DNA of 20,736 nt from Candidatus Methylomirabilota bacterium (GTDB lineage: Bacteria > Methylomirabilota > Methylomirabilia > Rokubacteriales > CSP1-6). How positions within the stretch are numbered: position 1 is the stretch's first letter; every line of letters starts with the position of its first letter. This document shows, piece after piece, positions 13,019 to 13,372 of the stretch. The position numbers and the translations under genes are program-made. Where the stretch lies: contig JBKPAK010000224.1 of NCBI GenBank assembly GCA_046726415.1, forward strand, positions 1-20,736. Direction: 5' to 3'. The notes under the pieces are model-generated. The model saw only the letters and a program-made list of their open reading frames with translations, did not search any database and was not told the DNA's origin.

Positions 13019-13187
13019 AAGTCACAAGTCGGTCGGAGCGTCACAGCGCTCCAGCAGCGTCCCCGCCGGCACTAGGGTCGGCGGCTGAACGTGACCGAGC
13101 CTCGGGCCGGGAGTCGGCATCCGGTTCTGGGTGAGTGGGACTGGGCCCGCGTGGTGCCCTTGCCGAGAATAGGAGGTGATCCAGCCG

Positions 13188-13229
13188 ATGTGTAACCCTA
13201 CGGTGATCTGTGAGGTGGTTGCCTCCTAG
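13188..13229 (+). CDS. Putative 13-aa peptide MCNPTVICEVVAS
   Basis: ATG immediately after the extended SD AGGAGGTGATCCAGCCG; stop TAG 13227-13229. Confidence 0.45.
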   Translation: MCNPTVICEVVAS

Positions 13230-13282
13230 GCAGACTCCACGCTAACTCCAGGTGGAACGCCTGGGACCCCCAGGCACCACCG

Positions 13283-13372
13283 GCCCCGACGATCCCGCCG
13301 ACACCAGCGGGGCGGCGCGCAGCAGTACCGAAATCGGGAGCGCGTCGCAGCGATCGTCGGGGCTTTTTCTTT
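13283..13372 (+). terminator. Branched intrinsic terminator
   Basis: GCCCCGACGATC(13283-13294)/GATCGTCGGGGC(13352-13363) perfect 12-bp stem followed by TTTTTCTTT. Confidence 0.75.

Follow-up and report, generated by a model that had tools for sequence, protein, structure and literature searches.

Ms_IGR-5 (RF02471) is entered in Rfam as 'Actinobacteria sRNA' (small RNA) and was first reported in Mycobacterium smegmatis. Three papers (PMC8079986, PMC8780764, PMC10454040) just list it as an Rfam hit or as an expressed sRNA, and an M. abscessus paper (PMC4974804) reports ribosome-protected reads on its homologues in two mycobacteria. No functional study of Ms_IGR-5 or ncMSMEG15794c was found in the limited literature searched. 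Here, we describe an RNA of about 348 nt encoded on the + strand at 13025..13372 of a 20,736-nucleotide stretch of DNA from a Candidatus Methylomirabilota bacterium (contig JBKPAK010000224.1, assembly GCA_046726415.1), the whole of which is called the window below. Judged by sequence comparison, we read it as a new, 5'-extended variant of this known, uncharacterised family, with a Shine-Dalgarno (SD) sequence that appears sequestered and a core that would be a distant cousin of Ms_IGR-5. On balance, we lean towards a separately transcribed, stable RNA which, as a long form of the family, engages ribosomes by the docking mechanism proposed below.

Kinship with Ms_IGR-5 and the spread of two forms

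At the gathering threshold, no Rfam family was found in the window. A permissive Rfam scan aligned the full Ms_IGR-5 model (positions 1-184) to 13162-13370 with 27.9 bits (E 2e-4 on 701 nt, E 5.3e-4 genome-wide), the gathering cut-off of the family being 45 bits. An initial annotation, made from the letters of the DNA, had called the RNA unrecognised; this holds at gathering score, but not for the 3' two thirds, which align end to end with RF02471. Two other low-scoring Rfam matches, Prion_pknot and mir-3150, fall on a direct repeat (13376-13437) and the terminator and are put down to chance. The annotation had also seen no signatures of transfer-messenger RNA (tmRNA), ribonuclease P (RNase P), signal recognition particle (SRP) RNA or transfer RNA (tRNA), and rightly so: ARAGORN reported neither tRNA nor tmRNA, and the covariance models of tmRNA, RNase P, SRP and 6S RNA had no match in the window. 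The tmRNA (164.4 bits), RNase P (326.1 bits), SRP (70 bits) and 6S (84.5 bits) RNAs each scored over their cut-offs on another contig.

The likeness to Ms_IGR-5 extends to the layout. Both RNAs have an extended SD, GGAGGUG(A/G)UCC, located here at 13171-13187, and a short open reading frame (ORF; mini-ORF below) with a stop three codons past GAGGUG, a layout which was derived here, is absent from the Rfam description and is also present in Ms_IGR-5 members scoring over the cut-off. The first helix of the Ms_IGR-5 model, in which the codons that follow GAGGUG pair with the SD's 3' half, is aligned as paired here too, and the branched 3' domain with its intrinsic terminator is shared, the 3' helices of the model aligning to 13282-13364. 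Unlike the short form of Ms_IGR-5 (~185-210 nt), which starts ~10 nt before the SD, our RNA carries a structured 5' domain of ~140 nt (the conserved region upstream of the SD measures 146 nt), and its SD is predicted to be fully sequestered by a CCUCCU mimic which the short forms lack. Nor is the host actinobacterial, the nearest named records being Candidatus Rokuibacteriota, Methylomirabilota and Methylomirabilia; among records with 84-88% identity over the entire RNA, the labels Rokuibacteriota and Methylomirabilota predominate.

Within the order, blastn matched 13025-13372 in 56 of 61 genomes, made up of that of the window and 60 relatives (two genomes flagged unpublished, G011 and G025, are in the tallies); each of the 56 has one full-length match, and three of them have an additional one that is partial or short. 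By family, numbered f1 to f13 here, the RNA was matched in 34/36 genomes of f1, 18/21 of f4 and 1/1 each of f2, f3 and f5, with identities from 94% down to 73%. In the genomes compared it is thus a single-copy RNA that is kept across the order.

RF02471 exceeded its cut-off in 24 of 151 genomes of a phylum sample (50-84 bits), namely in 16/18 of f7, 7/7 of f11 and 1/1 of f13, and genomes of the window's own family scored 23-35 bits. The RNAs of f7, f11 and f13 are ~200 nt long and have a promoter-like TTGCGT-17-TACGGT directly upstream of the SD. R1, a covariance model restricted to the 5' domain (117 positions, 33 pairs) and built from members of f1-f5 and f8, was counted with one match per genome, three unpublished genomes included: it was found in 84/93 genomes of f1, 10/11 of f4, 1/1 of f3 and 10/12 of f8, and in none of f7 (0/18), f11 (0/7), f13 (0/1), f6 (0/2), f9 (0/1), f10 (0/3) and f12 (0/1). 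This pattern is complementary to that of RF02471, and therefore one bacterial class has both a long and a short form. The two would constitute a natural on/off pair, which makes the purpose of ribosome docking directly testable.

A motif scan with one genome per species yielded at least 120 loci, and the labels among the matches listed include Actinomycetota, Candidatus Rokuibacteriota/Methylomirabilota, Acidobacteriota, Nitrospirae, Thermodesulfobacteriota, Deltaproteobacteria, Zixibacteria and Ignavibacteriales; two listed matches, under the labels Planctomycetales and Candidatus Angelobacter, are probably fortuitous. R1 lies directly upstream of the core in metagenome-assembled genomes labelled Desulfuromonadales (65 bits), delta proteobacterium (50 bits), Deltaproteobacteria (35 bits) and Thermodesulfobacteriota (24 bits), is weak in those labelled Nitrospirae (20-21 bits), and had zero matches in the searched loci labelled Actinomycetota or Acidobacteriota. 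Both the Rfam label 'Actinobacteria sRNA' and the model behind it are, in our opinion, too narrow.

Docking site, mini-ORF and fold

The super SD, AGGAGGTGATCCAGCCG (13171..13187, + strand), is a contiguous 17-nt complement of the 16S rRNA 3' end. The reference for the latter was a same-genus genome with the 3' end GCGGCUGGAUCACCUCCUUU, the 16S of the window's own genome not being assembled. To our knowledge, this is the longest natural match to the mRNA-binding tail of the ribosome. The last codons of the mini-ORF and the first base of its stop make up an anti-SD mimic, GGUUGCCUCCU (13217..13227, + strand), which pairs with the SD at 13171-13181; in the long form, the final codons GCC-UCC-UAG supply the CCUCCU for this pairing. 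Helices were tested on A1, in which 47 homologues from the order are aligned, with pairing given as the share of alignment cells; A1 leaves out L041 (large insert, 3' end missing) as well as L020 and L022 (unpublished genomes). The 11-bp SD helix (13171-13181/13217-13227) is paired in 95.8% of cells, and its changes are one-sided only. A duplex of the SD with the free 13-nt 16S tail is predicted at -20.1 kcal/mol and one with the internal mimic at -21.1 kcal/mol. By a pseudoknot-free partition function, GGAGG is unpaired with a probability of 0.000-0.091 in eight Rokubacteria-type long forms, 0.05-0.73 in 15 short forms and 0.21-0.48 in three long forms from other phyla. Because of the low unpaired probability and the nearly equal duplex energies, the RNA would be closed, with a contested docking site.

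The mini-ORF, MCNPTVICEVVAS (13188..13229, + strand), opens with ATG at 13188, continues for 12 more codons and ends with TAG at 13227-13229. A search pattern that leaves start and stop unspecified gave 174 hits over all loci examined, across phyla, one of them (L022) from an unpublished genome. In 171 of these hits a start lies 7-13 nt past GGAGG, the frame has 11-15 codons and the stop falls exactly three codons beyond GAGGTG, with TAG, TAA and TGA all used; the exceptions are L088, L101 and L164. Where relatives have GTG in place of ATG, a 1-nt deletion preserves the frame, and the remaining indels measure 3 or 6 nt. The peptide itself is variable: even close relatives differ at codon 3 (N, K, R, I, S or T), the C-terminal ends differ by group, and E-V, encoded by GAGGUG, is all that is universal. 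By this comparison, start, frame and stop of the mini-ORF are kept across phyla, but the peptide is not.

Nevertheless, the RNA might be the mRNA of a functional micropeptide, MCNPTVICEVVAS, with the structure serving stability or translational control. The conserved start, frame and stop and the indels in multiples of three would suit such a role, as would third-position changes among GTT, GTC and GTG that keep valine, and the C-terminal CEVVAS retained in the long forms. However, codons 2-7 vary freely even between close relatives, the C-terminal ends read EVAVR, EVIVT, EVVAS or EVAEC depending on the group, and the word behind the universal E-V, GAGGUG, is also SD-like and a pseudoknot strand, just as the codons with CCUCC also serve as anti-SD mimic. 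With ~300 of the 348 nt being non-coding yet conserved and covarying, we regard a micropeptide as distinctly unlikely to be the point of this RNA.

Two pseudoknots complete the picture. The first joins GGUGGU in the ORF (13214..13219, + strand) to ACCACC (13276..13281, + strand), with a variable pair that is U-A in 39, U-G in four, A-U in two and unpaired in two of the 47 homologues; its 5' strand has 3 nt in common with the inner portion of the SD helix. The same two strands occur in short forms as GGUGAU:GUCACC, GGUGAU:AUCGCC and GGUGGC:GUCACC. When 161 distinct family sequences were searched for a complementary hexamer over the next 130 nt downstream, 156 had one; in 1000 trials with the hexamers shuffled among sequences, the count averaged 141.6 and never exceeded 151, the excess being modest because G-U pairs were allowed. 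The initial annotation had placed the 3' strand in a long-range helix, GTGGTGCC/GGCACCAC, which did not withstand the alignment: seven of its eight pairs depart solely via unpaired cells, at two positions 24 of the 47 sequences do not pair, L032-L035 are without the 5' strand, and the 3' strand fits the pseudoknot with the mini-ORF better (99.3% of cells paired vs 75%). Its proposed extension GGGCC/GGCCC is invariant and 97.4% pairable, shows no covariation and rivals the covarying arm of the terminator, and the alternative fold that was suggested via GGCCC is without comparative support.

The second pseudoknot, 4 nt upstream of the SD, is formed by the hairpin loop UCGGCA (13114-13119) and UGCCGA (13161..13166, + strand). 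It is paired in 98.6% of cells, and at one pair the 47 sequences divide, with zero exceptions, into 25 with G-C and 22 with A-U; since this split tracks one clade boundary, the covariation may represent a single evolutionary event. In long forms labelled Nitrospirae, a shifted equivalent of this complementarity between loop and SD flank appears to exist, according to our own reading of the sequences. This contact and the conserved 13-codon ORF were missed by the initial annotation, whose central architecture must be rebuilt from two pseudoknots and the mini-ORF, most of the local structure that it proposed being right.

The word GGUG(A/G)U occurs three times, in the SD (13176-13181), in the middle of the ORF (13203-13208) and at its end (13214-13219), and its C-rich partners are CCUCCU (13222-13227), ACCACC (13276-13281) and a loop CACC (13302-13305). 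Judging from their sequences, these words could together form a small network in which SD and anti-SD are mimicked. A candidate third contact, of GGUGA in the ORF (13202-13206) with the loop ACACC (13301-13305), is 96.6% pairable, invariant and without covariation, and 6-nt Watson-Crick matches of any kind between the ORF front and the 3' domain were not significant in a crude test across the family (58/161 vs 54.1 ± 6.4 shuffled). The network could also be seen as the working part of a trans-acting regulatory RNA, whose C-rich seeds (CCUCCU, ACCACC, loop CACC) would pair with the SDs of mRNAs, or of a sponge for RNA or protein, with ribosome binding tuning activity or stability. Many actinobacterial sRNAs, for example 6C, use C-rich loops; here, three GGUG(A/G)U and three CACC/CCUCC words mimic SD and anti-SD, and in one of the soil RNA libraries the contig depths add up to tens of thousands. 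Yet all the C-rich words have intramolecular partners, two of them being 95.8-99.3% paired and the loop CACC 96.6% pairable without covariation, and a plain base-pairing sRNA needs neither conserved start and stop codons nor a 17-nt complement of 16S rRNA. We therefore consider a trans-acting role unlikely.

As regards secondary structure, the minimum free energy of the + strand fold is -173.9 kcal/mol (z -2.74), and one of 100 dinucleotide shuffles was equally good; for the - strand the z-score is -1.39. The revised model has 84 pairs, with 92.1% of cells paired and 34 pairs altered on both sides among the homologues; in controls in which the 3' partners were displaced by 1-3 columns, 36-50% of cells pair. 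All motifs named in the initial annotation are present where it had placed them, its expectation of a fold better than shuffles and of homologues with covarying stems was borne out, and the 5' multibranch domain, the hairpin at 13104-13127, the terminator stem and the two hairpins inside the latter all covary.

The 5' domain (13029..13098, + strand) is a three-way junction. Its closing helix TCGGTC/GACCGA (13029-13034/13093-13098) is 98.6% paired with two-sided change at 3/6 pairs, one pair being G-C in 33 and A-U in 12 sequences and another C-G and U-A in 22 each. The hairpin GGAGCG/CGCTCC (13035-13052) is 96% paired (two-sided change at 5/6 pairs), the helix 13057-13060/13089-13092 is 75.3% paired (four pairs altered on both sides), and the hairpin CCGCCGGC/GTCGGCGG (13063-13084) is 90.6% paired (4/8 pairs). 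In the loop ACACAG (13044-13049) of the first hairpin, C-A-G is invariant in 49 sequences. The short forms L053-L076 start with (T)ACAC(A/C)AGAAAGGAGG and so share ACAC with this loop; the common word may be chance or a trace of the origin of the 5' domain. A hairpin domain follows (13099..13132, + strand), with an outer GCC/GGU helix (13099-13101/13130-13132) that is 100% paired, a stem GGGCCGG/CCGGTTC (13104-13110/13121-13127) that is 93.9% paired with two-sided change at 2/7 pairs, and the nearly invariant loop UCGGCA. A local hairpin GGGC/GCCC (13143-13158) was dropped, being 34% paired as aligned.

Past the ORF lie two hairpins (13236..13274, + strand), the variable TCCAC/GTGGA (13236-13256) and CCTGGG/CCCAGG (13260-13274). 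Both had been proposed initially, and they are indeed pairable (81.6% and 94.7%), but covary little or not at all. In L041 (G040:C401) the former contains an insert of ~77 nt, which splits the blastn match in two, and L154 and L183, from other phyla, have long unrelated stretches past the stop codon. The terminator domain (13282..13372, + strand) is built on a 12-bp stem (13282-13293/13353-13364), 97.9% paired with two-sided change at 6/12 pairs, and ends in a T-run (13365-13372). Its inner hairpins at 13294-13311 (with CACC in the loop) and 13313-13347 are 96.2% and 84% paired, with two-sided change at 2/5 and 5/8 pairs, respectively. The CCGAAATCGG cap and the AGCAGTA/GA internal loop of the earlier proposal turned out to be unconserved (35-48% paired).

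G-U is the commonest pair at several positions of the model (e.g., in 42, 38, 40 and 44 of 47 sequences), which fits the + strand only. This bears on a further explanation, by which the 17-nt match is a scrap of 16S on the minus strand and the rest a chance fold of a GC-rich spacer. The minus strand does read like the last 17 nt of 16S, and GC-rich DNA folds well by chance, shuffles of the + strand averaging -156 kcal/mol. But the match is just 17 nt long, the element is single-copy and order-wide with promoter, terminator and covarying helices on the + strand, and its G-U pairs would become C-A mismatches on the minus strand; conservation, covariation and promoter evidence refute this explanation, to which we give practically no credence.

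Transcription unit and gene neighbourhood

The RNA gene lies in a 565-nt gap between a ComEA-like helix-hairpin-helix gene (12572-12976, + strand; HHH_3, E 1.7e-21) and the cold-shock gene csp (13542-13742, - strand, opposite to the RNA; CSD, E 1.9e-30). A -35-like hexamer TTGGCG (12991..12996, + strand), preceded by an A/T-rich stretch (12982-12990), and, 16 nt after it, a -10-like hexamer TAACAT (13013..13018, + strand) predict a start near 13024-13026, where transcription probably begins. A generic promoter scan gave nothing at its threshold, and the promoter was instead read from the homologue alignment: upstream of the 47 aligned homologues, aattttt together with TTGG(C/A), TTGGAC or TAGACA stands at the -35 position, the -10 position is TAGGAT or TACGAT in most relatives, and the -10-like element lies 6-9 nt upstream of the conserved CAAATCGG/CAAGTCGG. 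With 60 nt of added flank, conservation in most family members sets in at precisely 13025 and stops at the T-run near 13372, and the stretch 3' of the terminator does not align between relatives. The discrete, multi-domain RNA of ~350 nt with ends near 13025 and 13370 that the initial annotation had proposed is thus well founded in the sharp start of conservation, the conserved -35 and -10 elements, the T-run and the covarying homologues; on these comparative grounds we take the RNA to be a real, discrete gene with its own promoter and terminator. Just past the terminator lie two direct copies of 29 nt, CGCGCCAGCCACCGACCGGCGTGC(A/G)GGAC, at 13376-13404 and 13409-13437, which differ by one base.

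Fifteen RNA runs contained 12-17% of the sampled words, and four of them, from four soil/wetland studies, were compared at a likeness of at least 82%. Contigs of these four metatranscriptomes cover 13034-13323, with a summed word depth on the RNA of up to 6484 in library X2 and up to 31181 in library X5. The 5' domain and the core are joined by contigs in X2 (13103-13186), X5 (13098-13286), X1 (13089-13319) and X6 (13088-13228). These contigs show the presence of the RNA in RNA libraries and the continuity of its 5' domain with the core. X2 and X5 had zero depth on 12850-13017 and past 13329, such missing cover being no evidence of transcript ends, and an adapter-like loose end before 13038 in X2 stems from a single contig.

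In family f1 the gene order is ABC-F, ComEA-like, RNA, csp, with the ComEA-like gene in 27 and csp in 26 of 29 loci, two of which are from unpublished genomes. Neither gene was found adjoining the RNA in 27 loci of f7, f8, f11 and f13, and for this reason synteny gives no functional lead beyond f1. The neighbourhood also matters for the view that the RNA is a cis-acting part of a neighbour, belonging to the ComEA-like gene as its 3' untranslated region or serving csp as a convergent element for antisense action or termination. The RNA begins 48 nt past the ComEA-like stop, it is convergent with csp, and the gene order is kept in f1. Against this stand its own conserved promoter, the absence of these neighbours from the 27 loci just mentioned, other contexts in other phyla and, among the metatranscriptome contigs listed, not one that links the RNA to the ComEA-like gene or csp, so that a cis-acting role seems very improbable.

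The ABC-F type ATPase gene (10079-11977, + strand; two ABC_tran, ABC_tran_Xtn, ABC_tran_CTD) lies ~1 kb upstream on the same strand as the RNA and was found in 17 of the 29 f1 loci by tblastn. The ABC-F protein family includes ribosome-binding translation factors; its vicinity to the RNA may be no more than inherited gene order. The ORFs at 12010-12519 (+ strand, 169 aa) and 13946-14977 (- strand, 343 aa) are without Pfam match, the latter being kept beside csp in several relatives with 57-96% identity by tblastn (72-80% over alignments of at least 160 aa).

Proposed mechanism and comparison with known RNAs

In the mechanism that we propose, the resting RNA would be in a closed, pseudoknotted state, in which the tail of a free 30S subunit and the internal mimic compete for the SD, the two duplexes being predicted to be nearly equal in energy. 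A docked ribosome would translate the 13-codon mini-ORF, thereby melting the ORF pseudoknot and the SD helix, and would terminate inside the anti-SD mimic, and the 5' domain, tied to the SD flank, would bias the opening of the SD. Candidate outcomes are ribosome holding, ribosome sensing, exposure of the C-rich words and an effect on RNA stability. If docking and translation melt the structure and end in the mimic, the role of the RNA would consist in influencing or monitoring ribosomes, and not in the production of a useful peptide.

Several points weigh against this mechanism and the kinship on which it builds. The match to RF02471 is under the Rfam threshold, the SD helix shows one-sided changes only, the excess of the ORF pseudoknot across the family is modest (156 vs at most 151), and the pseudoknot between loop and SD flank depends on one covarying pair that is split at one clade boundary. 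The SD accessibilities come from a nearest-neighbour model that ignores pseudoknots and uses approximate ends, and by this model the three long forms from other phyla (0.21-0.48) overlap the short forms. The transcript ends are those suggested by the sequence, the metatranscriptome contigs represent relatives in mixed communities, from libraries that possibly contain DNA, and are uninformative on ends, strand and level, and translation is known by report only, for distant short-form homologues only. For the host organism the evidence is computational.

A bolder version, which we find doubtful though worth stating, is that the long form is a gated ribosome sensor, an RNA class not yet described, whose 5' domain answers a signal and whose anti-SD copy is displaced by the 30S subunit. 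The signal might be a ligand, a protein, temperature or co-transcriptional folding. If so, the RNA would hold or count free ribosomes and couple ribosome supply to a global response, and the family would have been retained for that purpose in at least five phyla.

Some described RNAs resemble parts of the docking mechanism that we favour. Like tmRNA (SsrA), our RNA is stable by the above reading, pseudoknotted, near-universal within its group, single-copy and ~350 nt long, with a short frame and a probable direct engagement of the ribosome; tmRNA, however, has a tRNA-like end, lacks an SD and a start codon and enters stalled ribosomes, whereas our RNA has an SD and a start codon and no tRNA-like domain. 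Riboswitch platforms that sequester the SD, and RNA thermometers (e.g., ROSE, fourU), conceal it behind an internal anti-SD strand, with a folded domain upstream. The same elements occur here, the SD being predicted to be hidden by an internal anti-SD and the position of the upstream folded domain being one from which it could shift the balance. However, riboswitches and thermometers control a downstream protein gene, and what follows here is a 13-codon frame only, a terminator and then csp on the opposite strand; no Rfam riboswitch was matched in the window, and a same-strand downstream gene, as expected of a cis-leader, is not there.

Dual-function sRNAs such as SgrS/SgrT, RNAIII/hld and SR1/SR1P encode a conserved peptide behind an ordinary SD. 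Our RNA is like them in being stable and structured, with its own promoter and terminator and a short frame (which is translated in those sRNAs), and differs in that its peptide varies, its SD measures 17 nt and the boundaries of its ORF are fixed relative to the pairings of the RNA. Finally, we know of few stable RNAs that are single-copy across orders and recur in several phyla, namely tmRNA, RNase P, SRP and 6S RNA, all of which are central to the biology of the cell; the RNA family described here shares that single-copy, multi-phylum pattern and appears in soil RNA libraries.

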